From Schmidtea nova (lineage: Eukaryota): a stretch of 64,000 bases of DNA. The stretch is taken from positions 14,260,001 to 14,324,000 of the forward strand of contig CM097884.1 of assembly GCA_044892505.1 (NCBI GenBank). Reading direction: 5' to 3'. A program made the position numbers and the translations under genes. This document shows positions 8,440-50,924 of the stretch, in pieces (positions within the stretch are counted from its first letter, which is position 1; each line of letters starts with the position of its first letter). The notes under the pieces are model-generated. The model saw only the letters and a program-made list of their open reading frames with translations. It made no database searches and had not been told where the DNA came from.

Positions 8440-8850
8440 TATAATAATAATTATCTATAATGTTTAATAAAATAAAATAAATTATATGATCTCCACTTAC
8501 TTTCGATCGATATATTAAATCAAAAAAACGTGTTTTAGACTTGTTAGTTATATCTATTATAGGTTTTTCACCCCTTAAAAGATAACCCAGGATTTCGGGA
8601 TTCAAATTTGGAAATATTACAAATGTGCATAGGCATATCTACTGGGTCAAATGAAATATTAGACAAGTTATACCTAGAAGGATTATTTCTATCACCTGTA
8701 GTAGTATCATATTTCAAAATTGAAAGGACACGATATAAAAGACAGAAAACGTCTTGATTATTAATATCAAATGTACATTTTTTATTAAATAGACGTTTAG
8801 TGGTTCACATAGATTTATGGCCAGTCAAACGACTGAGTTGTGAAAATTTA
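8440..8850 (-). pseudogene. Maverick/Polinton protein-primed DNA polymerase B, N-terminal fragment
   Basis: KKCTFDINNQDVFCLLYRVLSIL...RNNPSRY...VDMPMHICNISKFESRNPGLS...FDLIY...H matches the pPolB pattern N.D..CF.W..LA.L / I.KFE..N / HY..I; stops and frameshift present. Confidence 0.7.
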
Positions 8851-9139
8851 GTAAATACAAAACTTATATATTCAAGTTTATTAAATTTGACAATTAATTC
8901 CTTTTTCATTTATTTTAGTTATTTTTACTTTTTAATATTTCGATATTTTCCTCTAAGAAGGTATTCTTCAGCTTCCTAGAAGAATTTGAGATGACTGAAG
9001 ATTGATATTCGTCATCTTTTTGAAATTCAATTTTCAATCAAAATTGAACTTAATTTGTTCCTGATAATTCGCAATTTCTAACAATAATTTGATTGTTGAA
9101 TGTGAAATCAAGTGCCCTACCAAGGGCTACCATTTACAA

Positions 9140-9938
9140 TTAAAAGGACTGTACAGAGTTTCTTAATCGGCAAGTATCATCTTGCAATCTGATATTCTTT
9201 GTCCCTTCAGATTTTGCTGATTGGTTGGTTATTTGAAAACCTAACTCTAAGTTATATGACTCATTCTCAATAACCGTCATATAAACCTTGAAAAACCATT
9301 TGTTACCCATCGCCTTGCAAAGTTGGTGATGCAACAAATAGGTGGCCATCTACAAAATGTTACCACTGTTTCCAGGAATTTATTTTATAGAATGCCACTG
9401 TTGAATTCAAAGGTGACCGATAGAAGGTATAGTGCCCTTTTTCAATATCCCATTACTAACTCAAGTTACTTGTACGTTTTAATAAATTCCGATGAAAATT
9501 AAATAAAATTAAGATCAAACTCACTATTTACAAAACAATATCTGTTCAACCTTCCTTTCTTATCACTTATACTCAATGACACATTATATTACCCTTAACA
9601 ATTGATTAAGTACATTCTTTTTTGTATATTAAGATGATTTATTGGAAAGAAAATCTCGTGGCGCATTACCCGAATAACCGAATTTATAACCGAATAATAA
9701 CATCTCCTTCACGTAATCTAGATGACTAGTTTTTATTAAAACCTTTTATGATTGTCATTTTTATTTTATAAAATTGATCTTAAGTCATTCCATGTTCATC
9801 ATCAGCTCCCTTGACCCAATCAATTTTATTGAATTTTAATGTAAATAATTTTGATTGTAATAATTTATAAACAAATAATGTTTTTCCACTCCCAATTGGT
9901 CCAATAATTTGAAACAGTGCATCATTTCTTAATTCCAC
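9140..9938 (-). pseudogene. Maverick/Polinton A32-like (FtsK/HerA) packaging ATPase, disrupted
   Basis: Walker A in FQIIGPIGSGKTLFVYKLL (about 9879-9902); GDVII leading into Walker B; C-terminal QLCKAMGNKWFFKVY...ESYNL. Confidence 0.7.
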
Positions 9939-9986
9939 ATTTAAAATTATATTTAGTTATTATTATTATTGTTTATATTTTTTTAA

Positions 9987-10230
9987 CCCTTTCTAAGGTG
10001 GTGGCAATATACTGTACACCATTTTAAACTAATAAAAATATCTAAGTGTAACGCTGTCGGTAATCATTTTTACTTTTGGTACAACTACTTGGTACAACCC
10101 CTTCTCCCTAAAAGCCTCTTTTGTTTTTATTTTTGTTTTTTATTTTTTTATCATCATTTGTAACTATATAATTATTATTAATAAACTTTGAGTTTTACAT
10201 CACTTTTAGTTTCCTTTGCCTTAGAAAGGG
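9987..10230. mobile_element. piggyBac-type MITE (244 bp)
   Basis: TTAA on both sides; perfect 12-bp TIR CCCTTTCTAAGG. Confidence 0.85.
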
Positions 10231-10326
10231 TTAAATAATAATTGTCATTGTATTGGTTTCATTTAAAAACTATTTTCATTAATGATTAGCAACATAAATT
10301 ATAAGGATAAGACTGATGCTTCGCAC

Positions 10327-10748
10327 ATGAATTTTTCAAATGGGAAACCACACTAAATCGTTGATAGAAGTGAGAAGAATCCAATAATATATTTTAAGAC
10401 AAGCAGATATAAAATAATGGACGCAAGGAATTTATTAGCGATGAAAAAGTATATTTTTATGATTTAACAATACAATCGATTATTGTAACAGCAGATCTTG
10501 GATTTAGTTGCAATTTAAATGATTTATCGAAATTAATAGAACGTGTTTACGAGCCAGAAATATTTCCAGCTTTGAGATACATAAAATATAATCTCATGTG
10601 TGTTAATATATTTGCAAGTGGTAAATTAATTATATTAGAATTAAAAAATAAAGACTATTCAAATATAGTTGATAATATTATTAACGATATAAAATTAATT
10701 ATTGAAGATAAAGCCTTTGTTCATTTCATATTAACATGTGACTCGTGA
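10327..10748 (+). pseudogene. TATA-binding protein (TBP)-like gene inside the Maverick-like cluster
   Basis: Open frame 10413-10748: LTIQSIIVTADLGFSCNLNDL...VYEPEIFPALRY...VNIFASGKLIIL matches the TBP repeat (NIVASCDL.F / YEPELFPGL / IFVSGKIV); upstream repeat broken by a stop and frameshift; missed by the ORF track. Confidence 0.75.
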
Positions 10749-10774
10749 TTGCAATAAACCTGCAATTGAAATAC

Positions 10775-10860
10775 ACGATTCTGATTGGTCGAGTGTGTAT
10801 TTTGAGTATAAATGTATGTTGTGCATACTCGAATCTGATTGGTTCAATGTGTATGGTTTT
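10775..10860 (+). promoter_or_regulatory. Duplicated CCAAT (TGATTGG) boxes and TATA upstream of the 11004 ORF
   Basis: ttctgattggtc, gtataaatg, atctgattggtt; same arrangement (tgattgg...ctataaata) at about 11998-12032. Confidence 0.45.
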
Positions 10861-11003
10861 GTACATGGTGTGTGTTTCTATCATATATACAATGAACATT
10901 CTATCATAATTTATATCTGCAATGTGTCAACAATCAAATATTCTAAAAAAAGGTAATATTAAAATTACTAATTTTCAATTTTTATATTTTTATAGAAAAA
11001 TTC

Positions 11004-11633
11004 ATGTCCGTAGTCTATACAAAATTGGCCGAAATATGCCCGAATCTGATGCCAACTCTAACTTATACCGCATCAGAACTATTTCCAAATAAGATCCAAG
11101 CATTGACAGGGATCGATATCAACCAGATCTTGCTGGATCATTGTGTCAATATCAATAATGAATTGTCTTATATGGCAGAGCACACTTATCAATGCGGACA
11201 TTGCGTTGACAGAATCCAAAAATTTCATATGTGGGTTCTGAGAAATACGCTCACTCAATTTGAGGCTAAGCAATTAAAGAAAATCGACGATGAGGAGGAG
11301 GAAGAGCAACAGAAAGGATCATGGCCCAATTCAACTCCGGAGCCGTTAGATGATTGCGATAAGTCGCCAAATAACTCGGATACTTCAATTATCGAATGTG
11401 ATTGTCTGATGGATCAATCAACTGAAAAACAAGAATCCGAAGAATCTCCAGAATTGCATGATTGTCCAGCACCAACTATAGATGGACCTTTTCCGATAGA
11501 ATCGCCCCAATCCCCGGATTGTGACGAATGTCACCGAAAGATTGATGACAATCCTGTTGATTATGATGGCCATCAAAGATACAGACTTTGCAGTCAATCC
11601 ATAGACAATATAATTAGGTTTTTAATGCTGTGA
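11004..11633 (+). CDS. Intact 209-aa hypothetical protein (acidic, Cys-rich) in the Maverick-like cluster
   Basis: Uninterrupted ATG ORF; CGHC, poly-Glu tract, ECDC, CDEC; no family recognised. Confidence 0.5.
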   Translation: MSVVYTKLAEICPNLMPTLTYTASELFPNKIQALTGIDINQILLDHCVNINNELSYMAEHTYQCGHCVDRIQKFHMWVLRNTLTQFEAKQLKKIDDEEEEEQQKGSWPNSTPEPLDDCDKSPNNSDTSIIECDCLMDQSTEKQESEESPELHDCPAPTIDGPFPIESPQSPDCDECHRKIDDNPVDYDGHQRYRLCSQSIDNIIRFLML

Positions 11634-12069
11634 TAATTTATTTATTTATTTACTGTAGTCATTTTAATATTTAATGTTGTCATTTTCGTATTACATAAAT
11701 GTTTTAGATTTTAGATTTGTTTTTATTTAACTTTTAATTAAGTTGTTTTTAATTAACTTTAAGTTAGTTTTTGATTTTATTTAACAAGTTTTTATTAAGT
11801 TTTAAATTCAAAGAAATAAAAATAATTAATTTTAAAAAAAGAAAGAAATAGAAATTAAAATAATTTATAGGAATAAATAATATTTACTTTAAAAACTTAT
11901 AAATAAACACACATGCATAAATTACACACATGCATGACACACATGCACGACACATAACAAAGACATGCATAACATGTGCAATACTAATGGATGTTTATGA
12001 TTGGACAAAAACATACAGTCATCACTATAAATACAAAGACATTTTTAGGATATTGTCACAATTATAGAA

Positions 12070-12489
12070 ATGCAATCAAGTAAACCAAATTATGATATCA
12101 ATGAAGAAAGATTATTTCCGACTGAATTAAAACCAGTCCAGATGTATTACGATAGCAGAATTTATTTTTTCGTTCAAGAAATAACGCTTCGTTTGTCTTT
12201 TCCAGTAAAATTATCAAAATCATAGTATGATAGTCTTGCTGTAATTATTGATAAAGAAAATGTTATGCCAATAAATAAATTTTTCTACAAAATCAATACC
12301 AATTTAAGTTGTGAAGAAACGATGTACATCAACAACAGAAAAACTCGTTTCCATGATGTTTTTCAAACTATCGATTACAAGGATCAAGAACACTGGTTCA
12401 TTACGACAATTATTCAAGGATATAAGATCAATAAAAGGAATTCATTACTCCAATTTGGAGATTCGATAATGCACGATATGCATAAATGA
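12070..12489 (+). pseudogene. Disrupted hypothetical virus-like ORF
   Basis: ATG after a CCAAT/TATA; MQSSKPNY... continues through a frameshift and a stop into the 12265-12489 ORF. Confidence 0.35.
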
Positions 12490-12563
12490 ATTTTATAAAT
12501 GTTATAAATGTAATTTAATAAATTTTAGAATTATCAATTTTAGTTTTTTAGTATTTGTTTAAA

Positions 12564-12850
12564 ATGAAACTAATCATCATCATATTATTATTATGTGTGT
12601 ACACTATTGAAGAAGAACAAGCTTTGACAGATTGCCAATCAACCCATCCGTTTAAATGAGAAGATAGCACTTGTGCGATTTACAATGAAATATGTGTTAA
12701 CTTTAACAGTTAATGCAATCAAATACGATTACAATGTGATCAGTGTCCTTCAAAACGTGATTTGATTAAGAATGAAATCGAAAAAATTATTACCAAAAAC
12801 TATGAAAGAGTCAAATGTCCGAATCAAACATTTTTTAAAAAACATTAAAA
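12564..12850 (+). pseudogene. Small secreted Cys-rich protein pseudogene
   Basis: MKLIIIILLLCVYT signal-like start followed by DC...TC...IC...C...QCDQC...KC, with two in-frame stops. Confidence 0.4.
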
Positions 12851-12959
12851 ACAATTCAAATGTCAAAATCAAACATTTCAAATTGAAAACGAAAAACAGC
12901 ATTATTATTACATTATATCAGTTTATTCATACTGATCGTGATCTTACTAATGCTGGGTT

Positions 12960-14540
12960 CATGTAGGGGCCAGATTGAACGATTCTGATAGTGGCTAGGG
13001 ATTCCCCATCCATGACCATACATAAATGTTTGCTATTCACACTCGAGCGCCCTTGATTATTTCCCTTGATAACCAAGTTGGTGATGCGCAAGGTGGTTAA
13101 ACAATGATGGGCAGGTGAGCTCTATTGCTAGAACTACTACCCATTTATGTTTACGGGTTCATGCTGCCGTAGAAGGATTTACGCTATTTGATTTGTTACG
13201 AAAATGTCTGATTATTTTCGATTTATGTTACTATGTTGCGTGTAAATCTGCTTTAAGTTTATTATTAATTACGAAAAAACGGAAAATGGAAGACAAAAAA
13301 ATCAATTTGGTAACACCCAACTCTTTTATTTTTCACCAAATTCAGAAAAGATTCCATCGGGAGGAAATATCTCCGCTAACCATTCTGTTTCCGTCATCTC
13401 CGTCATATTGTCCACTTGAGCTTGCAGATGCCTAGCGAATAGCTTTCTTTGTCGTCGGCGCTTAGAACCGATCGGACTAGAAGGGATTATTGTACTCAGG
13501 CCGTCGGTACCGGTACTGACCGAACAGGCCACTTTTTGTTCCCCTACCCATTTCTGGTATGTAATCGGTCAAATCTGTGATCGCAATTCCGAGTCTATGA
13601 AGGATGTCGTCACGGAATGGAGACATCGTCGTAATTCTATCGTTGTCACTTCCCATTCCGTGCGGTAATCGTCGGCGGTTTTCTGTGCTCGCTCCGTTCG
13701 ACTCATCTGCTCCTTCATACGAGCAGGGGCAAACCAGTTTTTTCGCAAGTATTGGATTTGGGCTTCGGCTTTAGTCAGTTGTGCTTTCACCTGTGTCAAC
13801 TCCTTTTCCAGAGCTCGACGAATCATCCAAGCTTTATCTAACTCCCGTTGTTGACTTGTTTCTGGGTTCATGCTAAATGGTAAATGCATTTTTATTAGGG
13901 AGAAATTTCATTTTTAGTGGCCGCATAAGATGACAAAACTTCAGGTTCATTATGTGGACGATGGAAAAGAAAACAAGAACTAAAATCAACGCAATTTAAT
14001 ACGCAATTCAAAGAACACTTTTGATTTATCATTACACCATCGTTAGAATAAACATTAAATCTGGGTTCCACGCACGGGGAAAATAGGTAGTCCTCGATTG
14101 ATTGGAGCTCGTCGAACGCTCGCTAATGAAAAATTGAGCCTGGGTCGTTCTTTGGACAAGTTGCGGTACGTTGCATAGATTCAATCCCAATTTTAGCAAC
14201 TCGTGGGGCGAGATGTTTCCCCAATGTATCGCTGTTACGGGATTTTCTTCGGAATCCGTTAAGACTATGACGAGCGATGCAGCCGTTGCGGGGTATCCTT
14301 TGTCGGAAATAGGCCATCCTGGGCCCCCTCGATATAACATTCGATCCTGACCATTATTCCAGATGGAAAATGGGCACTTCCTTCACAGTTCCCATCTCCA
14401 TTTATACATCAAGACGTTGAGGGTTCTCATGATTTCTTGAGGCAGGATTTTCAACTCTCGCTCTTTGTTCAACATCCTAGTGCTGGCTGTCGTTGCCGAA
14501 TTTCGTTGGGTTGTTAGAAATTGATCCACTGCTTGTCGTT
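12960..14540 (-). other. Unknown compact ORF cassette, copy C (ORFs 14032-14340, 13569-13889 coiled-coil, 13326-13532 and a decayed ORF at 12960-13160)
   Basis: Homologous to 965-1403 and 2660-3480; small divergent ORF MKVFLNCRESDG... at 14577. Confidence 0.5.
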
Positions 14541-15569
14541 TCATCTGGATTATTTATCATTTAATTTTAACAGATATGAAGGTCTTTTTAAATTGTAGGG
14601 AATCCGATGGGGTCATACGCCCGATATTACTTAAGGTGGAAATCGATGAGGTTATTGGCCTTGCCCAAGTTGAGAGTTTAATAAAAAAACAAAATAAGAA
14701 GAGAAAAAAATATATGGTGTTCCTTTAATATTCATTCAACCCTGTCGCTATATACAGCGATCAGAATAATCTAATATTGGATGTTAAGATTTACCTGCGC
14801 TATCTACAGCGATCAGGTTAAAAATTTTATTTGTCTACATTTAATTATCGGTAATCACAATCGATTTTAATTTTTGTTTATTTGTCTGGATCTGATCGTT
14901 ATAAATAATGACGAAAATTTGTCCTGCAACTGTCTCATTTATGTAGGGTATCCGGATATATGTCGTTGCATGGTTGATCAGGACTATGTGTTAAAATTTC
15001 GTGATGGTAGAATTCTCAACTATCATACCGTGCATAACAATTTCGGTTGATTCATTTGCTCTTGCATGTAACGAGATTCGCTAGATTGTGAATGTGCAAA
15101 AATTCGATCGATTAAGATTTATCGTAAAATCAGCTGGGTTAATCATATTGTATTTACTATTCAACGACGTATTTTTAAACTTTAAAACTAGTACGACCTC
15201 ATCCCATGTGCAGCTCTAACTCACCATCCAATTACGATTTCATACAGGGTTTTAAATCAAATCTGACCTCTCAAAATAAAATAAAAAAATTAAAACTTCG
15301 CTCACCATTTTGTGGAATAGTAAAGTCCAACAATAACGGCTTACTCCCTAGCAGCGTGAGCTACGGAGGAAGTGTATCTATAGGCTTATCAATAATAATG
15401 GTAAAATATTTATAACAAAATGACTAATTATAACTTATATTCATCAATTAAAATCATGAGAACAATAAAATATAAGATTACAATGACAACAAAAAATATT
15501 TACTTTCGATAATGATCGGATGTCTTCAGAGAAAATTTATAGATTAAGAATACTCACACACGGTATAAT

Positions 15570-16039
15570 TGTTATGAGTCTCAAAAATAGATGTTGTTAA
15601 CTTTGTGATTTTCGGATCGGTATTTATACTGATCCTAGTTGGTCAGATTGACCAATAAGGGTCAGGCCGTCCATCAAAGTCTGTCTATTATTTTATTTTA
15701 TTGTAAATAATATTTTATTTCCGATTCAGGTTTCTCGCTGGGTGGTCCTGATTTTCGAAGTAATTAATCAATTAATTGTACTTTTATTTTTATTTTATTC
15801 TTAATTTTTCTGTTTCAGGCCCCCTGTTGCTTGTTCTAGTGTAAATTTCAAATCTTTCTCTTTGCTGGTAATTTATTTATTATTATTAATTTATTTAATT
15901 CTGGTTTTTAATTCAGATTTCCTATATTTTTGGTAATTATTATTTTCATTTTTTGTTTTAATCGTATTATTATTTCCGTCTCCTTAGGTCACTTGGCGGC
16001 CCCAACATCACTCGGGGACCCCTAAAATTGCGTCCCACA
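15570..16039 (-). mobile_element. LTR-like remnant downstream of the MATH-bearing retroelement
   Basis: Minus strand has TGTTGGGG at 16008, CCAAT and gtataaata, ends ...ATAACA; no clear PPT or TSD. Confidence 0.3.
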
Positions 16040-16206
16040 ATTAATTATACATAACTGCTTATATCATCACACTTAAACATAAAGAATCACATAAGGGGAT
16101 AGGATTAATACACATCATAAAAATTGTCACAGGATAGTCGAATATCAGAAAATTATTGTTACAAGATAGATAAATGTATGTCAGAAATGTTTCATGCAGT
16201 TTATTC

Positions 16207-16761
16207 GATTCTCTGACTCGCATTGGGCTGGGTTCGGATTTTCTCATCGAGGTTTGATAATTCATAGTGGGTTTGAATTCGGTTTAGATAGTTTCTCATA
16301 CGCCTTTGGGCTCTGTTGTCTCGCCTTGATGTTTGATTGAAAATGGCTTGTTTTTATTTAAGGATTTTTATTCGGTAGGATGCAATAAGGATTGTAATTG
16401 CGATGACAGCTATGCTGATTGCGAGGATTATTATGATGGCTATAATCCATTTCTCTTGATATTCGATTTCGGCTTGGGATAGACTTTTTATGGGTTCTCT
16501 ACCTTCCTTCAGGATTTTTCTGATTTCCTCTAATTTAATTTGCTGTTTATAAAGGATTTGTTGGGTTTGTTGGTCTTGACTGTGGGTTATTTTCTGTCGA
16601 AGTTCGTTGATCTCTTGTATTACTTCATTGATATGGTTGTCCAGTACTTTATAGATTTTGTCGGGTAGGGCTCGTAGCTGTTTCTCGGTGAGTTGCAAAT
16701 CTTCTCTCTGTAAGGTGATGGTTATTAACCATAGGAGTATTGGTATTGCGAGCTTTCTCAT
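16207..16761 (-). pseudogene. Small type I membrane protein (signal peptide, coiled coil, TM); premature TAA at 16354 with in-frame continuation
   Basis: MRKLAIPILLWLITITLQ; TM WIIAIIIILAISIAVIAITILIA; frame continues KQAIFNQTSRRDNRAQRR... after the stop. Confidence 0.6.
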
Positions 16762-16899
16762 CTCTTTTCTTTACATATATGTCAATACAGTTTGACACTT
16801 TATTTTACATCGTTTATTTACAATTAATTTCCACTCCTTTTATACGAGGGTTTCGTTTGGTTCGTGAAAACCTTCATCTTGAGGTTCTACTTGGTTCAT

Positions 16900-17880
16900 G
16901 GGGAGTGGCATCCATACTACCGTGATCCTCCACATTTCGACTTCATCTCGGTACACATGAGATATCTGAATTTTCCAGATAGTTTGCCTGCTCTGTTAGG
17001 GTTTCTATTTGTTTTTCCAATTCTGTTATTTTTGTCTTTCTCTCTTCTTCTTTCATCATTTCTGTTACTGCTGCTGTGATGCTTGTTTCTTTTGTTGGTA
17101 TTGGTTTTTCTGCCAACTTCTTCCTCAGTTCCTCGTTTTCTTTTGTCAAGTTTGTTACGTTTTCTTCATAACTCTGTTTTGCTTCTTCTAGTCTTTCTTT
17201 GGTTCTTTTTAGTTCTATTTTCTTCTGGGTAATCACTACTTGATACCCATTTATATCTCTTTTCATCTCCTCTTTCTGATTTCATACTCCGGTGAGCACA
17301 TCTTTAAGTCGTTCTTTGTTGTTTAACTTCTCTTCCATTCTTTGTACTTGATAAGTTAGTTGTTTAATTTTCTTTGCTTGTTCTCTGATGAATTGTTGTC
17401 TCTTTTTATTCCAGCTTTTATTCGACATTTTTTGGTTGATTTTCTGTTCTAATTCATCTTTTAATTCATCGATCTCTTTATATAATTTCCAGTCATCACT
17501 ATAGGCTGTCTTTTCTATTATTTCTCTGGCTTTCTCGTATGATTCTTTTGCTTCTTTTTTCCAGTATCTCGCTTGTTCTGTGATCGAATAAATCTTGTGG
17601 TCGGTTTTTATCTGTTGTCTATCTCTTTCCTCTCGTCGCTTTTTCATCATTCCTCAGTAGTATTCATTTTGTTGTTTTGACATTTTGTATACTTCTTCTA
17701 TTTTCTCTCGACTTCTTTGATTTGTTCTTTCTGCTTTTTTAGTAATTCGGCTTGTTTTTCCACCTCCTCATGCTTTTGGTAATATGCGTTGATCCATATT
17801 TCGATTTGTTCCAAATGATTGCTAATCGCCTCAGCTTGATGTACTGAAATCTCGTGCATACATACCTCAATATTTCCCAT
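16900..17880 (-). pseudogene. Long coiled-coil accessory ORF of a retroelement, broken into three pieces
   Basis: ORFs 17698-17880, 17282-17650 and 16943-17266 are tandem, same strand, E/K/Q-rich heptads. Confidence 0.5.
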
Positions 17881-18004
17881 TACTATAAATGTAGATAATG
17901 TTTAAAAGGTTTATATTTTCAGTTATATGTTTTGTTTATTTTATATTTTTGGGTATTTGACTATACATACTATTTACACGGTTATCCAACTCATTACGTC
18001 CACC

Positions 18005-18640
18005 ACCCTTTTGCCGTTTTCTCATCTTTCCTATACCTTGTCATTTCTATATATAAGGTGTCTGCATTTAATAGTCCCCATATCTTTTTTTGAGTTATGT
18101 CTAGTGGGTCTCCAGCTGCTAATCCGCACTCTTCTGTTGGTCTTTCGCTCGTGTCTGCATGTTTATCTGTCGTGAAACTTCTTTCCTCTGTTTTCCTACA
18201 CTTTTAATTCTTATAATGACTCCGATTTCTAAGGGCCATTCTATTAGATCGTCGTATTCTCCTTTACATAGTGCGAAAAATATTGACACATGTGTTCCTC
18301 GCCCTCTTCCATCTCCATTTGGGTAGACTTTCAATCTCATTTTACAACCGTTTTTCCATAGGTAGAATGGTGGGCTTATTAATGCTGTTTGCTGTTCGTT
18401 TCCCCATATGAATGATACATCTTTCTTTACTAGCTCCTGTATGGGTTTTGCGATTCCCGCATAATCCTTTATAAATTTCCTATAATATCCGCATAATCCG
18501 AGAAATTCTTGTATCTGTGTTATCGTTTTTCTTATTGGACATTCTTTTACTTTGTCTATATTTCTGGGATCTGGTTCCTTTCCTTTTGCAGACACTATAT
18601 GTCCCAGAAATGTCGATGTCTTGATATAAGAATACCAAAA
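18005..18640 (-). mobile_element. Ty3/gypsy RT thumb fragment fused in frame to a TRAF/MATH domain
   Basis: TFLGHIVSAKG.EPDP...EFLGLCGYYRKFIKDY (RT) joined to SPPFY...KMRLKVYPNGDGRGRGTHVSIFF...GEYDDLIEWP (TRAF MATH); C-terminal LLNADTLYIEM after a frameshift. Confidence 0.9.
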
Positions 18641-18989
18641 AAATCGTCGACAATTTAATTCAAATAATTTTTGGGAAAAAGTTAATTAAATAACTAACTT
18701 TATGTTTTTTCAAATTGATGTAAAAAAGATAACCCAGCCAATTCTTGTCCAATTTGTAAATGCAATGTTCAATCAATTCAAAAAATTTATATTCCATAAA
18801 TTGAAGAAAGCTACCAACACCAAAAGTACCATGTTTACAAAAACATTATGTTTGATATTTGTTAATTTAGATAATTTTAAATGTTGTTAGTAAATAGTGT
18901 AGTTGTATTAGCTATATTTAGCTATATTAGTTATATGTATAGTTCTATAAAAGTTGTAATATTTATTTGCATAATTTTTTGTGCATTTT

Positions 18990-19900
18990 ATATTTAGTCT
19001 GTTTGTTTCATTTCCAATTTAATAAGTACCATGTATAACTAACGGGTTTGTAAAGACATTATTATAACAAAAATTGAAATATATTTAGATACAAGTTTTG
19101 TATTTGTAATTGGAAAATTATTATTTGTGTGGCATTTAGACAACGGTCTGAGTTCATAACACTAATTTTTGACAAAAAAACTCTCCCCGGTAATTTAATT
19201 ATAAATACATTTAGAATATTTACTACCTATTACAGTAATAATTAATGCTATCTCCCAGTTAACTAACACCCTTCTAAAAAAATTGTATTATTTTTGGCCC
19301 TTAAATTTTCGATTATTAATTTAGGATTCAATATTGTCGGCTATTTTTTTGTACTACAGTTTCGACAATTTTTTCGGGTTTCAACATTGGCGACGATTAT
19401 AACCAATTAAAGCTTTTTTTCTTTGGTGACTATTTTTTTGGCTTCCATATTCGACTATTCTAACCCTCACTAAAATGTCGAATATTCCAAAGAATAATAT
19501 TCCCATAAATAATAACATTCCTATGAATAAAAATTTTCATATGAATAATTTTGATTTAAAATTTTGTACACGTACCCAACGTTATTTATAAATAAATTTT
19601 GTTATTTAGTCTTTGTATTATTATTACTAAATTGTATTGCAATGTCTTTGTTAATTTGCCTCAGCAATATCTTTGTTAACTATGTCGTTGTTTAAAAAGG
19701 GTATGAAATTATATTTGTACACCATGGACGCTTTTGATATACATAGTTTTTAATATTTTGAACTTTGTTTGTTATGACCATGAAAAAACCTTTTCAATTA
19801 TATCTAATTTTTTTGAAAAAAATTTGAAGTTTCTTTTAAATTCTCTGTTTAGTAGTGCAACTTCGTCAATATCAATTGTCTGATGGAGATCATTAATAAA
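18990..19900 (-). mobile_element. Decayed Helitron (Pif1-like helicase) remnant
   Basis: Fragmentary ITGESFLSKI and VFTNPLVIHG resemble Helitron helicase C-terminal motifs; many stops. Confidence 0.3.
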
Positions 19901-20348: not shown

Positions 20349-23300
20349 CAGGGTTTCGAATATAACCCAAACCCTTAACCAGTTCCGGTTCAAGCTTTTT
20401 TGAAAAAAATGTGAACCCTGAACCCAAACCCGGTCGGTCTTAAATTGGGTTCAGGTTCAAAATTTATTTATCTTTTAGAGCAAAATGAAATGATAAATAT
20501 TTTGTGTTAAAATTTCTTATTAAGTTTCTCTGAAAGTAAATTACAGAGAAATTGTATAAGAAATTTTGCACTAAATATTTATCTTTCTCTATATTTCATT
20601 TAATTTTCTGCTGAAAAAATTGTTCAGTCATTATTAAATTTGAATTTTCTAACATTAACATAAAGTGAGAAAATTATAATTCATGAATGAACAAGATAAT
20701 GTTTGTTTTCTTTGCAATTTTGTTTTCTTTAGTTATTTGGTTTTGCTCATTATAATTTTAGTTTTCTTCCGGAAATAGGAAATAGGTTAAAGTTTATAGT
20801 AATTAGTTACTTTCAAAAAGTTGGAAAACATTTACGATAATTATAAATTAACAGATTTTAAATGTGTGATTTTTTATTGAAGTACACATTTTTTTTTAAA
20901 TTTGTCTTCTTTTAATTACCATTTAATTTACCTTATAGATGTGAAAAAAACTCTGTTCAGAAACGTTTCGAAAATGATTCTATCACAGATAAATTTACGA
21001 GTAAAAATGCTTATTTGTTATGAAAATTAAATATAATTCTAAATTTGGTCGATATCTCAAACAAAAGCACCCAGATGAATATCAAAACATTAATAAAGAT
21101 ACGAATATTAAACCACCTACCTCAGAAAATTTAAAAAAACATAAAATGCAAGATAAAAAATACATTTCCATAGAAAATTATTTTTGATTAATCAAAATCT
21201 TTCAATGAAACCTACGTTAAATTAGTTATTGTAAATGGTCGCCGATTTAGAATTTTTAAAGATTCTGGAATGCGTGAAATTATAGAACCTATAATGAGAT
21301 CTTTAAATCTTACTGTAAATTACAAAATTAATAGATTGCTGGGTTGAATGAATGTTGATGTAAAAATTATTATTGACACGGGATTAATATGATCCATAGC
21401 CCATCATAAATATTAACCCAACACACTCGTGTACCCATAGTTATTCCCTAACTAACTATGTTGGTACTGTACACGGTGACGAGAATATAGTGAGCAGCTA
21501 AGCCCCGTTACCGAAACTACTCCTCATTTTATTCTCTCTTTCGGGTTCCCGCTGCCGATAGAAGGACTTAAGCATTTTCTATCTTTATGGTCCTATCGCC
21601 TGATTAAATTTTAGCTCTATGTTCCCCACATTTATTGGTTCTCAAAAATTGTATAGATAACCTTCCTTAACTCCCTCAGGTTTACTTTACACATATACGT
21701 TAAATTTGCCTAACCTGTCACCCAAGATTTAATTGTCTATAATTATTATGTTGTACTTACCGTACCGTGGTGCCATAAACAGCCCCACTCGTACGGAATC
21801 ACGATCGCGATTTTCACCACAGAGCCAAATTTAAATCCGGGATTACTATATCAAAAATAAACTCAAGACTAATATTTCAAATATTTATTAACATCAATTA
21901 ACAATTTATAGAAAAACTTCCAATTAAGCTTTATAAAAATAAAAATAGTACTTTGAGTAGACTCGCAAAGATTTGCTTTCCTTGAATAAACAAATAAAAT
22001 GACCAAAGTTGGTTGGTAGAATAACTCAAAAATGACTGTCTGCAAATTTTTGGTTTCAGAATAAATGTTGAAATTATGAATTTTGAATGCCTTTATATAC
22101 TATTTTTCAGTGGATGTGTGCCCACTACTGATGTGGGGTTGCTTTACAACTGTCAGCAAAATTGGATGCATGCGGTGGCTTTTCTCTCGACTTTCTATCA
22201 TCTTACCGACCCCCAACACCAGTCGCTCGGACATTACGTGTAAGCTTACATGCAGACTCTGTCGAGACTACATGCACGTAATTTCCAAATTACTTTTATG
22301 CTACTATTTTTGTAACATTTTACCATTTTCACGCATCAACAAGTTTTCATTAAACCATCCAGCCGTCAACCGCAACCAAAGCACGCCAACGGCAAACCGC
22401 GCGGCAATTCATCGGTTCACTCACTCGTATACATCTGAGTGAATAAATAATAAAATCAATGCAAATTTTCGCGAATTGCGACAACGCTATTTCATCATCA
22501 TATAAATTTTTTTTATTTATAAAAATTGTTTTTGTAATTTATTTTACTTATTTGTCGCTCTAAATATCAGTTTTTACTTTTTTTAAATCTTTATTATTAA
22601 ATTATCCGGGTTAATTAACCAGTTTATTTTATTTTTTTGTTTTGTCCCATTTATTTTTTTGTTTTGTCCCATTTATTTTTTTGTTTTGTCCAATTTATTT
22701 TTTTATTCCACCAACCTAACAAGATGAATTTGGGAGATTTTTATGGACTATGGTTGAAATTTAAATTAGATTTAGAAAGAAATTCTGATAAGAAATTTGG
22801 TGCTAATTTCTACTCACATATTATTAGTTGAAAAAATCATTTATTGAAAATGAACTTTTATATGCTGCCGTGTATTTGGATCCCAAATTTGGACTGATAT
22901 TAAGTGATAAAAATACTGCCAAAGCTCAAAACCAAATTTTAATAACAATAAACAACTTAAAAGATTAACATCTACATATGGAAGTTGAAAAGCAAATACA
23001 AAATAGCCCAGAAACTACGAATACTGAAGCAAATAAATTAATATCTAGTTCTTTGGATGAAGAGGACACCCCGGAAGAGTTCTTAAAGAATAAGTGAAAA
23101 AATCAATTGCAGATGCTGCATTAAAAACAAAAAATATTAACAATAAATTCACTGTTAATGTTATTAATAAAAGTGAAATTGAAGTGTATGAAGCCTTTCC
23201 CAGGATTTCAAAAGAAAAAAATATTTTAGAATTTTCGGAACAAAAGAAACTTGAAATTCCTATCATATTAGCTGTTTCTGCAACACAACTCAGAATTGAG

Positions 23301-23703
23301 CGGGCCTTTTCAGCGCTGGAATTTGTTTAAGCTCCACAAAGAGTGCATTTAACCGAACAGTCATTAAGAAATATTTTATTTGTTAGGCTTAATGAAAGTT
23401 TGTTCGAAAAATAAATGAAAACAACTAATAATAACAATAAATAATATAGGTTTATTTATATTTTTAAAATTTAAAATATTTTTTATTTTGTAATTTACTA
23501 GAAACTAGAAACATTAAAAGATAAAAACCATTTTGGCTGTTCAAGCTAACATCAGGATAACTAAAAAAATAAAATATCAATAAAAATTAGATTTTTTTTT
23601 GGTAAACTTTGTAAACCCGAACCCGTACACGAACCCTTTAAATTTTTATGTGCTGAACCCGTATCCAAACCCGAGCTCACAATGTTTAGGGTTCGAAACC
23701 CTA
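20349..23703 (+). mobile_element. hAT DNA transposon, decayed, with internal insertions
   Basis: TIR (C/T)AGGGTTTCGAA; perfect 8-bp TSD ATTTTAAT; subterminal AACCC repeats; YAAVYLDPKF and SATQLRIERAFSAL...RVHL...LRNILFVRLN dimerisation motif. Confidence 0.9.
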
Positions 23704-24271
23704 ATTTTAATCCTTGCAGTATTCCAAGTCTTTCAAGAAAAAATTGAGACTGAACAATTTTATAAGTATCAATACTTAATAAAATGAGATAGATAACATG
23801 AATGAATAAAATAAATGATAAAATAAAATAATAAAATAAAATAGAAACATAATAATAAAAGTAACCTGGCGCAGTTTCATTGGGGGTATGATCGGATGCA
23901 TGGCATACATCATCATTAATAAATGTTCGACTTAAATATTAATTTTCTAATGAAATGTTGCTGTGAACAATAATGCTTCTTCTGATTTAAAGATTTTAAT
24001 GATGCCGGAATTACATGGAATGGTAGAGATTCATTCGGATAATAGTTTTCGGAATGAAAGTGAAATAATAAGTGATAGAGTCGAAATCGAACAATATAAC
24101 GAACGAATGTTTACTTACGAAAAATTGTTTAAAACAACTGAGTTTTATCAAAATAAGTGGCGAATTATATGCCACTTTTCAGTGCGTTGGTTGAAAATAT
24201 TTTCCATGTTGTGCGATACAATGTGCAACATGAAAACTAGCAGCAGTAACATTATTTTTAGGAACAAGATA

Positions 24272-29067: not shown

Positions 29068-30288
29068 TCAAATATTCAACAAATTATCAGTAATAGATGC
29101 CGGATTACCCGGCGTAGATGAGCCAAATCTGCGAGTGGATGATGTACTTTTATCACTTGTAGAATAAACGGAATTCGGTCGAGTATTTAAAGAACTCTTG
29201 GGAGTAGACGGGGTCATTCTAGCAAGCAATTTAATCGCTGCTGGCGACACAATGGACCTCGATGAAGTCGGTCGATTGAGATTTGATCTCACTCTATCGA
29301 GTGCCTGTTGTTTTTTATCCTTATTCTTTCTAGCTACCTTGGAAGCCATTTCATTGGCAAGCTTTTCTCTTTCAGACGGTTCCTGAATTCTAAATCTCGA
29401 CACAATAGTCGGACTATCCGGAATTTCAATTGGTGTTCCATCAATTTCTCCCCATGTGGTTTGCGGTGTCATTGTTGCTGCTGGAGTTGTGTCCATCCTG
29501 CCCAGAATTGTAAACCCCGCAACTCTCGGTGTTCCATTTGAATCGAGTTCTTTGCCATCGTGGCCGATTTTCCCGGGAACTTTGGTTTTTAATTGATTGG
29601 TTTTCGGACGATTTCTAACGATATTCAATGGGGTTTTGAAACGGGTGTTCTCATAAACAATTTCTGGCTTGGTACCAGCGAGAAAAACCCGTTCCTTTGC
29701 TGATAATTCCACACTGCCGGGATTGAAAAATACTGGATTGAATATTTTATATTGAAGCATTTTGTTGTTGTTTTTGTTTGTTGTTGTTTTCTCATTTTGT
29801 TTGTTTTTACCATCTGTTATAGCTGGTAGATTTTCTGATGCTGCCAATTCGAGAGATTCAGATTTCAAATCATTGTATTCTTTTGCTGCTTTAAACCACC
29901 AGGATAATTTATTAAGTTGTCTTTCAATAGTTTTCTTTTGTAAATCGGAATAAGAAAAATTATCTTCACTAGTAAATTTCGATAGATACTCATCCAAATG
30001 AAGATCTCTTTCGTCTTTTGCACTGGGATTTCGATATGGAAATGAATTTGTAGAAGATTTTGGTGTGGTTTCAATGTCTCTATGGCTTTCAAATACTTCG
30101 TTAATTCGGTTTAATTTCAACTGAATTTCTTTCATGAGACAAAAATCTTGAGAATCCATTGCATCATAATATTTTAATTGTAATTCCAATAATTCTGAAT
30201 CAGGGAAAAAATCTCTATTTATTATAAATTGTAAATCATCGATAAATTTATCCTCATCAACAATGCCTTTAACTTTTCCTAGAGTCAT
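29068..30288 (-). CDS. ESS2: Splicing factor ESS-2 / DGCR14 homologue, single exon, 406 aa
   Basis: DEDKFIDDLQFIINRDFFPD, LDEYLSKFTSEDN.S, NTRF, GKIGHDGKEL, MTPQTTWGEIDGTP, FRIQEPSEREKLA, SPAAIKLL. Confidence 0.93.
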   Translation of the reverse strand: MTLGKVKGIVDEDKFIDDLQFIINRDFFPDSELLELQLKYYDAMDSQDFCLMKEIQLKLNRINEVFESHRDIETTPKSSTNSFPYRNPSAKDERDLHLDEYLSKFTSEDNFSYSDLQKKTIERQLNKLSWWFKAAKEYNDLKSESLELAASENLPAITDGKNKQNEKTTTNKNNNKMLQYKIFNPVFFNPGSVELSAKERVFLAGTKPEIVYENTRFKTPLNIVRNRPKTNQLKTKVPGKIGHDGKELDSNGTPRVAGFTILGRMDTTPAATMTPQTTWGEIDGTPIEIPDSPTIVSRFRIQEPSEREKLANEMASKVARKNKDKKQQALDRVRSNLNRPTSSRSIVSPAAIKLLARMTPSTPKSSLNTRPNSVYSTSDKSTSSTRRFGSSTPGNPASITDNLLNI

Positions 30289-32331
30289 AGTTTTAAAAAA
30301 TATATATGATTAATAACTATGTAAATTAAAATGGAAAGATTAATTTTAAAATAATTTTAAAATTTTAAAATTGCAAAATTTATTATTTCAAATTGAATGA
30401 TTATCTATATTTATGTAGATTATTTAAACAATGCGTAAAACTTTAATTGAAATATTTTTAAAATATATTTAATTTTGTATTTCAAATATTTTCATATTTT
30501 AAACATTAAATCAAAAAATTAAAAAATTAAACACACTACAAACAGTAAAATAACAAAAAAACATTAATTCGATTTTTAAAAATTAAATTGTAAAATATAA
30601 AAGAAACGATTAAAATGAATAATTAAAAGAATTTAACATATTAGTAAAAGCTTTATTTAATACATTATTTTACATTAAAATTAATTAATTTAGAATTAAT
30701 ATAAATATTAACACAAAAATATTAATTTAATTTTAGAAAATATGAAGATTTTTTTTGGAAAAAATAGAAAAATTAAATCTTAACTCCAGTTTTCTCAAGA
30801 GAATCATTGTTATGCAAGGAAAAGTTTTCTATGATGGCTAGAGCACAGGATCATACCTTCGGTGGATCTATGGCAGATATTTTTACATTTTGTATATCGT
30901 GTCATTATAAGAAGATGGGTGTAGAAAAAGGGTTTTAAAATTAAAATAGTATACAGTGGGAAACGGAAGGTACAGAATAAAAATACATTTGGATTTGACG
31001 GCAATCACAATTCAATAATCAATGGAAAATATCAACTTCAATGACATTATGATTTTAATGATTCTATATGGTGATATTTTATTGTTGATCTTATTTGACT
31101 TTTGTTTTATGATGATAATTATCTATTGTATATTCATGACAATTATGTGATTAAGCTGTGACTATCTGACAATTTTTATTTTATGGGATAATTTTATTTT
31201 GTTACTGTTAATAAAATTAATTTTTGTAATAAAAATTTATCAACATGACAATTTATAATTTGACAATTTATCATTTGTGATTTTGCGAACATTTATTGAC
31301 ATTTTTATGGTGATGGACAAAATTTTATATAATTTTGAAAGAATATTTTATGTAAATTAATTTTTTAACTATTTGGAAAATGGATTATATTTTCATTTAT
31401 ATNNNNNNNNNNNNNNNNNNNNNNNNNNNNNNNNNNNNNNNNNNNNNNNNNNNNNNNNNNNNNNNNNNNNNNNNNNNNNNNNNNNNNNNNNNNNNNNNNN
31501 NNNNNNNNNNNNNNNNNNNNNNNNNNNNNNNNNNNNNNNNNNNNNNNNNNNNNNNNNATAAAATATATTTATGACCTACAAAGGTCAGCAAAATGAAATA
31601 ATATTCTAAGGTTAAAAAATAATTTTGAAAACAATTCTATTTTGAAAACAATTTCAATCAAATCAAGAAGCAAAATAACAATCATTATTGACAGATTAAG
31701 TGCCTTAAAATTTAGTATATAAACTGACTGATTTTTCAGTCAAATCACCCCAAACATCATTGCGATTAAAAATCTAATAGTTGTAATTGACTATAAAATT
31801 AAAATAGAGCATACCGTAAATCGAGCTCAGAGCAGCATTCACGCATCACATATTACAATCATAACACATTTACACACAGACAAATTTAAATTTGAAAGAA
31901 GTTGTTTGATTTTGATTTATCTTGGTAATTATCATTTTGTTATTTAAATAAAAATTTAGTACGAATCAATGTTATCTTATTTATTTATATAAGATACCAA
32001 GTTGAGACTCTGGGAACCTCAACATCATTTAATTTTCGTTTATTTTATGTTGCTATTATTTAATCATTATTTTATATATCAGGTATTTTATTACGAATAG
32101 GGAGAAGAGCGGGCTAGGAAACAGGCACAATAATGACGACATAGCCAATCAAAATTGAGAATACCCTCGGGGATGGAGTAAAAAATCTTATGATAATTAA
32201 TTTTTATTATATAATTGATGACGTATTAATAAAAGGTCAAATTTTACAAAAAATTCAATAACACTTAGAAAATTCAAAATTTTCAGACACAATTTTAACA
32301 AGATAATTATTACAGGACATAACTAACTTAA

Positions 32332-34173: not shown

Positions 34174-35183
34174 CACTTTGTGTCATAATTTTGCGTACGG
34201 GTTAAAGAATGTTCTTAGAGGAAATAAAATTTAAAAATATTTCTATTTAACAAAGTTTACATTTAAATAACTTTATTCGAATAAATAAATATACGACATT
34301 TATGAACAGAACAAAATGAGTTCGAATTACAAAGAAATTTTGATTTTAAAATTGCACAATTTTGCGTACGATATAATTATGTATTTTGAAAGAGTTATTA
34401 TTTTAATATTTGATCCTTTTGCCTTGATGTTCTAAAACATCACATATTCGGCTTGGCATAGAATCGTATAGATGCTTAATTGCAAGTCTTTAAGTCTCAT
34501 TGATTGTCGCAACAGCCGAAGTAATTCGAAGCAGCAGTTCCATCCTGTTACGTGGCCGATTTTCCTTGTAGACAAGGTTAGACACCATAGACCAGACATT
34601 TTCAATAATGTTTAAATCTGGACTAAAAGGTGGCCAATTTAGAAGTATCACTCCATTGTCTTCGAAGTTTTTAACGGCATCTTTTGAAACATGTATTGGA
34701 CAATTGTCTTGCTGAAAGATGAAATTTCGACCCATATTCATTTTAATTAAAGGAAAAGCAACTAAGTGCAATATATCCATGTATTTACAGGTGTTTTGTT
34801 TCCCATTCATTAACTTAAAAGTCAGCAGTCCATTGCTCATTATCATTCCTCAGATCATAATTACTGGAGCTCTAAGCACTCGTCTGACATGAAATGGGGA
34901 CTTGTTGCTGTCAATCCAACTAAAATATGAGTCGCATCCATATAGAGTAAAGCGTTTTTGATCAGAAAATACAACGTTATACCAGTCTATATTATCTTTG
35001 ATATGATCTCTGGCAGCTCTAATCCGCTTAAGCCGATATTTCTTCAATAAAGTAAATTTGGATCTGAAAGTTTTGTATTCAAATTTCAGACATTTCAATG
35101 TCCTGGAAATTGTGCTCTTTGAGACATTAAATTTAAATTCTTCGATTATAGATGACGCAGATGATTTAACGCCAACAACATTA
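34174..35183 (-). mobile_element. Tc1-like transposon, 3-prime part (split by the gypsy insertion)
   Basis: VSKSTISRTLK, VVFSDQKRF, FQQDNCPIH, WPPFSPDLNIIENVW; TA-flanked end CACTTTGTGTCATAATTTTGCG. Confidence 0.9.
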
Positions 35184-36048
35184 TGTTGGGTTATTGGTGT
35201 TAAGTCGGTAGTTTCTGACTCCGGTGTTCTCTTTCAATTACAAAATAAACAAGACCCAACACAATAACTTTCTTTATTTGTCAATTGATCACAACTCTTT
35301 TTATCACAAAAAGTTACGCCGGTTCTGCACTCTTCGCGTGAGGGTAGAACACCCAATGGGATATCTCCCTCTCTGACACGCAATAGATTAAGTATAAACT
35401 CTACTTTTGGTTTTCTTTCGACGTCTCCTTCAAATGTCTTCTAACGATTTGATTCACGTTGCCTACTTTTATTCTTCAATCGGTTGGCCTCGAAACTTTG
35501 ACTTTGACCCAATGGCAATTTCGGCACTTTGCTCTCCATTTTTATACCATCTCTGTGTTGTCATTCTGTCGGTGTAATTGGATATTATCGAAGCCGCTCG
35601 CTTGTAATCGGATCTGATTAGCTCTGCTTGGTCGTAACTGGATATTTGTCGTTTATGGTTTTTCCGGCTCCCCCCCGGGGCATTCAATTTAATTTGATAG
35701 TTTAATGGCCTCGCTGATGCCCCGGGTTTCCCACATCGCTCGGATCTCCTACAAGCTCGGGTTTCCCACTAGCTCGGGCTTCCTATAGAATAATTAATTA
35801 TTTTAATTAATTTGTATTTTCCAATTATTTCCTTCTGGGGGTCCCTTTTTATTTTTATATACCCATATTCGAATTCGTCTCGTTGTTTGGTATCCTCCCA
35901 TACCAGTTTCCCCCGCTTAAACTTTATTTTAATTTTTTATAAATTTTTAATTAATGTTTGAACATTAATTATTATTTTTTTCAATTTTATATTTTTATTG
36001 ATTTATGCATTTTTAAATTTATTTTCTGTGATTTTCACAACCCCAACA
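35184..36048 (-). repeat. 3-prime LTR
   Basis: About 3 substitutions versus 50925-51789 by eye. Confidence 0.97.
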
Positions 36049-36050
36049 TA

Positions 36051-36064
36051 TCTCCCCCTTTTTT
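36051..36064 (-). promoter_or_regulatory. Polypurine tract
   Basis: AAAAAAGGGGGAGA, 2 nt before the 3-prime LTR. Confidence 0.9.
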
Positions 36065-37973
36065 AAAGATTCGTCCTCGAATCTACATATACACATATTT
36101 TTGATCATAAATCCTGACAATGATTCTATAATAATAATAGTAATGATAATATCACGAATAATAGTAATAATAAGGATAATTATAGTAATAATTGCAATAA
36201 TACTGGTAGTAATGACAATGACCTAAGTATAATAATGATGATGATAATAGTATTAGTAGTACCACTATAACGATAATAATGGTAGTAATACTATTAATAA
36301 TAGTGATAATACTAGTATAATATTNNNNNNNNNNNNNNNNNNNNNNNNNNNNNNNNNNNNNNNNNNNNNNNNNNNNNNNNNNNNNNNNNNNNNNNNNNNN
36401 NNNNNNNNNNNNNNNNNNNNNNNNNNNNNNNNNNNNNNNNNNNNNNNNNNNNNNNNNNNNNNNNNNNNNNNNNNNNNNNNNNNNNNNNNNNNNNNNNNNN
36501 NNNNNNNNNNNNNNNNNNNNNNNNNNNNNNNNNNNNNNNNNNNNNNNNNNNNNNNNNNNNNNNNNNNNNNNNNNNNNNNNNNNNNNNNNNNNNNNNNNNN
36601 NNNNNNNNNNNNNNNNNNNNNNNNNNNNNNTTTTCAAAATAATTTGTTATTTTAATTTATTAATTTTAATTTAAACTTTAATTCTATAAATTAATTAAGG
36701 AAGGGAAATTGATATTCCAAATAAATTTTATTTTCATTGCCATCTCTTTTAAAGTGACGCTACTTTAATATAAATTATAAAAGAAATGGCCGCCTCAGCT
36801 TCTCAGATATCGCCGCCGCAATAAAAGGCGGTGAACTAGGATTTTTATCATTATTTTATTTCCAAATTTTGTAAGTAAATTTTTTTTGTTTTATTTACTT
36901 TATTAATATAAATTTTATGTTTTTCAATTTTATGTTTTCAATTGAAATTATAATATATTTTTTTATATACATATTTTTATATGTTTTTAAGTCAGATTAT
37001 TAACATGGAAAAACTGCAATGGCTTTATATTCATAACTTTGTTTTATTTATTTTTTTTTTCATCGATGCCATCTACAGGATTGTGTATATGAAAATCAGA
37101 GAATTATTGTTCCGAACAAGTGGAAAATAATACTGAAAAATGAATGCTTTTGCAAAAAGGCTATGTTGTAATCCGAAAAGACAGAGTGATTTGCAAAACA
37201 TGTTGGTAGATATTTATTTTATTTTATTTTTTTTGCATTAAATATATATGATTATAAATAAAAATAGTAATAACAATAAAATATATACTTTTTTAGATAT
37301 CGTTTTACAGGATAATGGTCTGTGTGTATAAGCATGTGTGTGAACGAATGTCGAATCGATAACATTATTCATTAGATAATTATTAATCACGAAAATTGTT
37401 TATGAAGAATTTTTTTTTCTTTTTTTTTTTTCGACTTTATAATTTTGTCATAACTATATTTGGTACTTTAAAATAATGAACCCAATTGACATTCGTTCAA
37501 ATTTAAAAATTGTGAAGTGCATGTTTTACAGAATAATCCTTTTCTTAGTATTATTTCTGTGTGTTTATCTCTATATTTGGAATACTTTATCGGACAAGCG
37601 ATAACTCATCAGAACATTTAGATTATTATGCCAACGATTTACTTTTGCCAATTGAAACAGAAATACAATAATAATAATAGAAATGACAATATTAATAACA
37701 ATAATAATGATAATAATAACAACACCAATNNNNNNNNNNNNNNNNNNNNNNNNNNNNNNNNNNNNNNNNNNNNNNNNNNNNNNNNNNNNNNNNNNNNNNN
37801 NNNNNNNNNNNNNNNNNNNNNNNNNNNNNNNNNNNNNNNNNNNNNNNNNNNNNNNNNNNNNNNNNNNTGTCCAGGAGAGTATGATCCCGGTGATTAAGGG
37901 CTGTTGGTTTTTATTTAGATTTAAAATTGTCATCATATAACAACAATGATACTAACAATAATAATAATAGTAA

Positions 37974-38004
<31 letters not shown>

Positions 38005-40138: not shown

Positions 40139-40323
40139 TTCTTACAAACGATTATAATTTAAATTTGAATTAATTCAATTTTGACGCTAGGACTAAGATG
40201 GAGTACCCAAAGGATACTGTCTTAGTTGGTAGCGGTATAAATAAAAATATAAAATTACCGATTTAATTGAAGTTTTCTTAGTTATTTGAAATTAATTTAA
40301 ATTTTATGATGTCTAAGTTTACC

Positions 40324-40390
40324 TTATATACCCCCCTTTTGATTTTTCTATCCCTTTTTCTACTCCCTCACTCTTTTAGTATTAGCCAAT
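40324..40390 (-). promoter_or_regulatory. Putative internal Pol II promoter for the exonuclease ORF
   Basis: ATTGG (CCAAT box) at 40386-40390 about 55 nt upstream of TATATAAG at 40323-40330, about 190 nt before the ATG. Confidence 0.45.
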
Positions 40391-40514
40391 CAAATCACTT
40401 TCCCACTTTCCCATGCCGAAGAGTGCAGATTCACATGAAACAATTATAAAAGAAAATGTCACTAGATACTAAACTATTAATCTACCATAATTGCATGCAA
40501 ATAATTGTATCTCA

Positions 40515-50920: not shown

Positions 50921-50924
50921 AATA

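Follow-up and report, generated by a model that had tools for sequence, protein, structure and literature searches.

The closest described relatives of the locus analyzed here are the Burro retroelements. As far as the accessible text of Arkhipova and Yushenova (2019, PMC6431247; relaying Jurka 2007 and Grohme 2018) goes, the motifs found in Burro1/GYPSM1 include MATH_TRAF_C, BIR, and ankyrin; the MATH domain resides in ORF1 in Burro1 of Schmidtea mediterranea and in an accessory ORF further upstream in D. tigrina, and env is placed between gag and pol. Since this is stated there, TRAF-domain cargo in Burro elements has to be considered as already known. A further cargo, Burro1 B-IAP, is a retroelement-borne apoptosis regulator uniting BIR and RING, and is reported to protect stem cells from apoptosis (Lee et al. 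2026, via the accessible part of PMC13465017). Planarian hosts in turn harbor a TRAF/MATH expansion of their own, described in the accessible parts of PMC6109357 and PMC7586133. Finally, ORF111L of the fish iridovirus ISKNV is a TRAF gene captured by a mobile genome, and its target is the death signalling of the host; in the accessible part of PMC3352826 it differs as cargo of a DNA virus, acquired by an independent capture and reported to be pro-apoptotic, so that the direction of a TRAF cargo effect cannot be assumed. Within the accessible portions of the literature, including PMC6109357, PMC7586133, PMC8532177, and PMC11410931, no link between retroelements and the planarian TRAF expansion was found. 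Likewise, this literature yielded no description of a whole TRAF gene 3' of pol or of an RT-less TRAF+IAP family, with the reservation that Grohme 2018, Jurka 2007, and Lee 2026 may show some of this, above all in the diagrams of Burro-2 to -4. Relative to the literature found, novelty lies in the position of the whole TRAF gene on the 3' side of pol, in the scale, and in the RT-less family carrying TRAF+IAP.

The locus in our window, i.e., the whole 64-kb stretch of DNA analyzed, represents what decay has left of the 3' part of a giant Burro-type Ty3/gypsy LTR retroelement. Compared with the accessible description of Burro (PMC6431247), its group shares a size of about 30 kb, a gag-env-pol frame of ~5,000 aa, CCHC knuckles, a mononegavirus-like fusion env before the protease, and ankyrin repeats. 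In contrast, it carries a complete RING-ZnF-CC-MATH TRAF as a separate ORF 3' of the polyprotein and shows no BIR match within the Pfam limits applied; BIR is present in a related RT-less family. The BIR+RING ORF of that family (399 codons) resembles B-IAP, whereas the cargo tested in Burro1 was the IAP and not a TRAF (PMC13465017, accessible part). Preserved in the remnant are an RT piece of 233 nt, the terminal MATH part of the TRAF gene, broken downstream ORFs, a purine tract, and a full 3' LTR, arranged in the window as follows.

18612..19470, no strand assigned: unrelated interspersed repeat that adjoins the RT fragment at its 5' break, with 39 other loci
18381..18613, minus strand: RT thumb fragment of gypsy pol, 88-94% DNA identity to the pol of full elements
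18381..18390, minus strand: deletion junction, an imperfect microhomology of ~10 nt between RT and the MATH start
17994..18390, minus strand: TRAF-C/MATH end of the element TRAF gene, with a frameshift near 18190 (from Pfam, frames, and trees)
16843..17898, minus strand: broken copy of a ~362-aa coiled-coil accessory ORF, with stops and frame changes (from tblastn)
16204..16767, minus strand: copy of an accessory ORF of ~200 aa, hydrophobic in a stretch at its C-terminus; 188 aa align with the full-element ORF at 77% identity
16008..16030, minus strand: purine-rich tract at the position of the polypurine tract, matching the sequence that precedes the 3' LTR in full elements
12951..16007, minus strand: complete 3' LTR of about 3.06 kb with TG...CA ends, coinciding with the LTR ends of full elements

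An earlier note on this DNA had read an RT thumb joined in frame to a TRAF-C domain, and this holds: FLGLCGYYRKFI of the thumb, the junction EQQTA/LISPPFY, NGDGRGRGTHVSIFF, and GEYDDLIEWP all lie in a single stop-free minus-strand frame (18685-18122), in which Pfam recognizes the MATH domain (TRAF-mep_MATH, E 2.7e-17; MATH_2, E 5.6e-17). ADTLYIEM, which the same note had placed in this frame, belongs to a different one, downstream of the one-base frameshift near 18190. The stretch around this frameshift (17959/17970-18262) was unaltered in contigs of all four public runs (X1-X4), which stem from one study and possibly have the same source as the assembly. Not until residue 116, within MATH, does the fusion frame contain a Met. 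With the N-terminal two thirds deleted (RING, zinc fingers, and coiled coil), the reading frame shifted, and no upstream Met, the TRAF of the window is not an intact translatable gene. The same-strand accessory ORFs reported downstream are indeed present, as remnants; tblastn with the intact coiled-coil ORF recovered three pieces in two frames at 50-88% identity. In addition, two ORF remnants with 43-57% identity to ORFs in full-element LTRs and without a Pfam match were observed inside the 3' LTR (13338-14532, minus strand).

The A-rich composition from which a long residence in the element had been proposed was borne out on the coding strand, with 41% A in the window MATH vs 30-36% in host MATH exons (n = 5), while element DNA contains 39-44% and one element TRAF ORF 44%. 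The copy itself is old, since the closest other LTR is only 92% identical among 40 scored of 798 candidates. Neither the 5' LTR nor gag, env, or most of pol was found within the 64-kb window beyond the RT fragment, and the best 40 scored of the 798 LTR candidates included no partner 5' LTR nearby on C3. At the 5' break, the adjoining repeat matches its 39 other loci at 88-98% (best piece of each); many of these copies terminate at 18612, and contigs of X1 and X4 bridge this boundary; we infer that the repeat is DNA-transposon-like.

The earlier note had explained the fusion by a deletion inside a gypsy element bearing TRAF cargo at its 3' side, and had asked for full-length relatives of RT and MATH. 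When the own genome (1.25 Gb) was searched at the DNA level, the best 40 scored of 1,019 candidates comprised 39 further loci, all matching at 78-87% from the MATH start onward and none containing the RT part. Their flanks hold an intronless 469-codon TRAF ORF upstream of the same downstream ORF set as in the window. Four full elements were delimited, measuring 26.3-29.8 kb with LTRs of 1.7-3.3 kb, the two LTRs of a copy being 97.7, 99.4, 99.8, and 99.9% identical, and sharing the order LTR, small RING ORF, gag-env-protease-RT-RNaseH-integrase-ankyrin frame, TRAF, coiled-coil ORF, small hydrophobic ORF, LTR. These copies bear out the proposed deletion. The "TRAF domain" named as cargo is present, yet understates what is carried, namely a whole gene with RING, zinc fingers, coiled coil, and MATH, which in all full copies examined forms a separate intronless ORF of 459-476 codons 3' of the polyprotein.

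Assignment to the Burro type is based on several characters. The polyprotein comprises ~5,000-5,700 codons (about 5,090 and 5,680 in two copies, each interrupted by two stops), and Pfam identifies gag CCHC knuckles and the PR-RT-RH-IN domain order therein, as well as an env-like fusion glycoprotein (PF24664, E 1e-70 to 1e-76) upstream of RVP. Ankyrin and MATH_TRAF_C cargo are present, as is the size of 25-30 kb and more with long LTRs, in all four full copies. MATH_TRAF_C resides in the separate 3' ORF and not inside ORF1 as in Burro1/GYPSM1 proper. BIR, BCL2-like, SUMO-like, and dUTPase-like motifs were not detected in the window's group within the Pfam limits applied (0.01/0.02), the published calls having been made with HHpred. 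One distant member (L036-L037) was observed with a TRAF of 45-48% identity and a like 3' cassette, in which the protease is joined to ankyrin without RT or integrase in the stretch read.

The junction itself was examined for its authenticity and frequency. A contig of X1 spans 18342-18422 across the join with zero differences; under a rule of 31 letters for bridging it was the only one of the four runs to do so, X2 covering the join with one side shorter. The runs thus exclude an assembly join yet are mute on population spread because they possibly share the assembly's source. Searching the 1.25-Gb genome with a 38-nt junction pattern (up to 3 mismatches) gave a single match. At the join, RT and MATH have ~10 nt in common, and the corresponding sites lie 7.5-9.1 kb apart in full copies. 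An in-frame join is unremarkable, given that 402 of 716 8-mers shared between pol and TRAF in one full element are in frame. Among 17 loci of a sister family, picked partly for odd ORF length, four carry other large internal deletions at overlaps of 4-18 nt. L107 is one of these four, and L104 and L108 break at the same site near the MATH start. Splicing as origin of the join was considered and rejected, with no GT donor on the RT side at the break and the join falling within the microhomology, just as the sister deletions fall within their overlaps.

The unique junction, the common in-frame chance, and the recurrent deletions of the sister family together identify the fusion as ordinary decay. 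About 8 kb were lost between two short sequences resembling each other, probably through template switching of the RT or through microhomology-mediated repair, the two being indistinguishable here, and the RT thumb met MATH in frame by chance; the copy was later frameshifted and lost its 5' half beside another repeat. A fusion protein is not expected because of this frameshift and the lost 5' half. This account as a whole, a scar in a Burro-type element whose TRAF was captured once and kept by selection, is very probable.

It is, by comparison, highly improbable that the RT-MATH chimera is functional or amplified, either as a domesticated gene or as a non-autonomous family founded on the deletion. 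Such a role would suit a join that is real and in frame, and a second, independent in-frame fusion exists at L107 (G000:C2:167486880-167494880), where the start of RT is joined to MATH in an open frame of 1,304 codons. However, the junction in the window occurs once in the genome, its MATH is frameshifted with the first Met only at residue 116, the 5' LTR is absent, the downstream ORF is broken, and in-frame joins arise readily by chance. The RT-MATH fusion as a meaningful product is therefore unsupported, the more so as sister copies show like deletions; the fusion itself is unimportant, and it is the TRAF-bearing family that matters. A single recombination event between an RT fragment and a host TRAF exon can practically be dismissed, as can an assembly join: although the genome contains many host MATH loci, the window MATH is 70-84% identical to the TRAFs of its own element group vs 32-42% to host MATH (alignments of at least 86 columns; up to 57% in local matches of ~50 columns), the ORFs and LTR downstream of it are those of the element itself, and the X1 contig bridges the join.

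In the intact element TRAF, Pfam identifies RING, TRAF zinc fingers, and a C-terminal MATH, which places it in the TRAF family, the coiled coil being assigned by position and composition only. PDB matches cover TRAF RING/ZnF and TRAF-C, with the MATH of TRAF5, TRAF3, and TRAF2 as nearest solved structures. The RING has Cys at the usual His position, likewise in aligned host TRAFs; this variant, CGC(R/K), is common to the element TRAFs and six host TRAFs, and all zinc-finger ligands are invariant. FxPD and ASG, two groove motifs of TRAF3/5, are retained by the closest host TRAFs and altered in the window's element group.

Phylogenetic comparison with host TRAFs, a check suggested by the earlier note, separated the two sets. 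In a first MATH tree (24 of 33 host loci, 14 element ORFs, and the window, read with X at the break), the 15 element rows including the window form one side of a branch supported by 100/99. A second tree with the RT-less family added and 10 near-duplicate or long-branch rows left out again placed the element TRAFs apart from the host (99/97), and the window MATH nests among the element TRAFs in both. The host C2 TRAF/MATH loci form clades apart from the element TRAFs; the host rows represent the best-scoring host loci, none of which the trees single out as sister to the element TRAFs. A protein database search retrieved 12 distant TRAFs and no planarian or element match; these 12, with 23-30% identity over long matches, served as sponge-like outgroups. 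The expanded host family (PMC6109357 and PMC7586133, accessible parts) resembles the element TRAFs in domain order, CGC RING variant, and nearest relatives (TRAF2/3/5). The two differ in that host loci cluster on distal C2 with no element around the best-scoring 30, while element TRAFs are dispersed, A-rich, and form a separate clade.

Across subfamilies, identity to a common reference amounts to 79, 78, and 54% for TRAF and to 98, 94-96, and 92-93% for RT. This divergence in step fits one capture and vertical descent, and judging from the sequences, the TRAF gene appears to have entered the elements once, long ago, from host TRAF2/3/5-like stock. Between subfamilies, dS was computable for 6 of 10 pairs and saturated in the others; these 6 give a dN/dS (NG86) of 0.12-0.23. 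Within three families, the ratio is 0.10-0.20 (0.008/0.041, 0.018/0.169, and 0.008/0.047), values biased downward because copies were picked for open frames. The TRAF is less constrained than RT, with a dN of 0.11 vs 0.01 in one pair. These ratios argue for purifying selection on element TRAFs at a dN/dS of about 0.1-0.2, also in the RT-less derivative.

This derivative was revealed by a BIR search of the genome (1,295 candidates, 150 scored). Two full copies (L137-L140, G000:C1:569565771-569591573, and L143-L146, C1:119234955-119260052) measure 25-26 kb, with LTRs of 4.1-4.3 kb that are 99.7-99.9% identical and a primer-site sequence as in RT-bearing elements. They share the order of a reduced polyprotein (protease, ankyrin), TRAF, BIR+RING IAP, and coiled-coil ORF; Pfam detected no gag, env, RT, or integrase in the reduced polyprotein. 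BIR matches are strong and a SUMO-like match is weak (E 0.019), and the BIRs of NAIP, survivin, DIAP1, ML-IAP, and cIAP score alike in PDB matches. The TRAF lies directly upstream of BIR at 10 of 12 BIR loci. Of the motif copies of this family, five spaced picks from the first 100 listed were all collinear with an open RING-to-MATH frame, and no RT was present in the 10 kb read at each. The RT-less copies also contain two ORFs, of 275 and 297 codons, that are hydrophobic at the N-terminus.

The abundance of both groups was estimated by motif counting. A 23-nt motif of the window MATH (up to 3 mismatches) matched the genome 458 times (control 1); its calibration recovered 28 of the 29 loci from the first round and 17 of 17 from the sister family, with 0 hits in 33 host loci. 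A motif taken from the TRAF of the RT-less family, from which the first motif differs at 7 positions, gave 1,235 matches (control 0). Because of these differences the counts are additive, yielding about 1,690 motif copies, of which only some represent intact genes. Spaced picks from the 458 all lay in elements (3 of 3), one with RT and two shortened on the 5' side. A Pfam MATH search of the genome delivered 2,393 loose candidates (150 scored). The 30 top-scoring loci are mostly located on distal C2, partly in tandem, and all lie outside elements, while 17 of 20 further picks fall within elements and 3 outside. A host MATH/TRAF cluster was observed at G000:C2 about 405-455 Mb (most of L052-L081), arranged in part as tandem arrays and including full TRAF ORFs that lack introns. 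Taken with the element architecture and the A+T-rich genome, the abundance of TRAF loci suggests that the host is a planarian.

TRAFs are trimeric adaptors with RING, and in vertebrates TRAF2 binds cIAP. It is fairly likely from domain content that the intact element TRAF would act as a trimeric adaptor or ubiquitin-ligase scaffold with an altered peptide-binding groove, and the altered groove motifs suggest a new ligand or a decoy role. The element TRAF would dampen the death or immune signalling of the expressing cell, and this, we propose, would favor persistence of the element. The predicted routes are IAP/caspase or stress-kinase signalling rather than classical NF-kB. Modulation of TNF/Toll-NF-kB signalling, which the earlier note had raised as a possibility, is unsupported. 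The accessible part of PMC13563047 records no clear NF-kB homolog in Schmidtea mediterranea; our genome search with PF00554 gave 0 matches, as did its controls. Promotion of host-cell survival is the most likely role predicted for the TRAF cargo. This host-facing, pro-survival role is favored because the TRAF is retained beside an IAP in a family that has dropped its enzymes. A partnership with IAP is not the whole story of the window's subfamily, the RING ORF of which shows no BIR match.

Two other roles have to be weighed. A mutualism, with element TRAFs buffering the survival of stem cells and the families being tolerated by host selection in return, is possible but doubtful. The high number of about 1,700 motif copies would suit it, as would the reported death of planarians through cell death upon host TRAF knock-down (PMC7586133, accessible part) and the comparable stem-cell protection by the Burro1 IAP (PMC13465017, accessible part). 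However, purifying selection during element replication suffices for the observed constraint, with no host benefit needed, and copies decay once inserted, that of the window included. Service to the element's own cycle, e.g., by ubiquitination or trafficking of Gag or Env in particle assembly or cell-to-cell spread, is unlikely. The env-like fusion glycoprotein domain and a peptide groove diverged from that of host TRAFs are compatible with it, whereas an intact TRAF is found beside IAP in a family without gag knuckles, env, RT, or integrase, where action in trans is conceivable.

Returning to the pro-survival reading, this parasite-of-a-parasite family, with enzymes dropped and TRAF plus IAP selected, would be a clear case of investment in host-cell survival. 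More tentatively, and with rather low confidence, most MATH/TRAF loci of the genome might be retroelement cargo from a single capture (about 1,690 vs 2,393 loose candidates), with the RT-less family of ~25 kb (about 1,200 copies) spreading a TRAF-IAP survival module and part of the planarian "TRAF expansion" being transposon-encoded. If true, this module, like the vertebrate TRAF2-cIAP pair, would protect the stem cells housing it. The family links the unexplained planarian TRAF/MATH expansion with the apoptosis-related cargo of Burro in a countable and testable manner, and retroelement ORFs may account for part of what gene counts, RNA-seq, and RNAi attribute to planarian "TRAFs".

The window contains several further features. 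A young env-bearing gypsy element of 16.6 kb occupies 35182-51789 (minus strand), with LTRs of 867 bp that are 99.7% identical, a gag ORF with weak SUMO-like and Bcl-2 matches, an env-PR-RT-RH-IN ORF of 2,349 codons, and a 3' RNase T/DEDDh exonuclease ORF; TRAF is absent from it, and its RT is 47% identical to that of the TRAF-bearing group. A repeat unit at 8575-12945 holds a TBP-like ORF (10413-10745, Pfam TBP E 6e-11) and elsewhere adjoins Polinton-like ORFs (packaging-ATPase- and integrase-like by eye). Short inverted repeats flank broken transposase-like frames, hAT-like by eye, at about 20349-23711. The host gene ESS2/DGCR14 is represented by a single-exon ORF of 413 codons at 29071-30309 (minus strand; Pfam Es2, E 1e-42).
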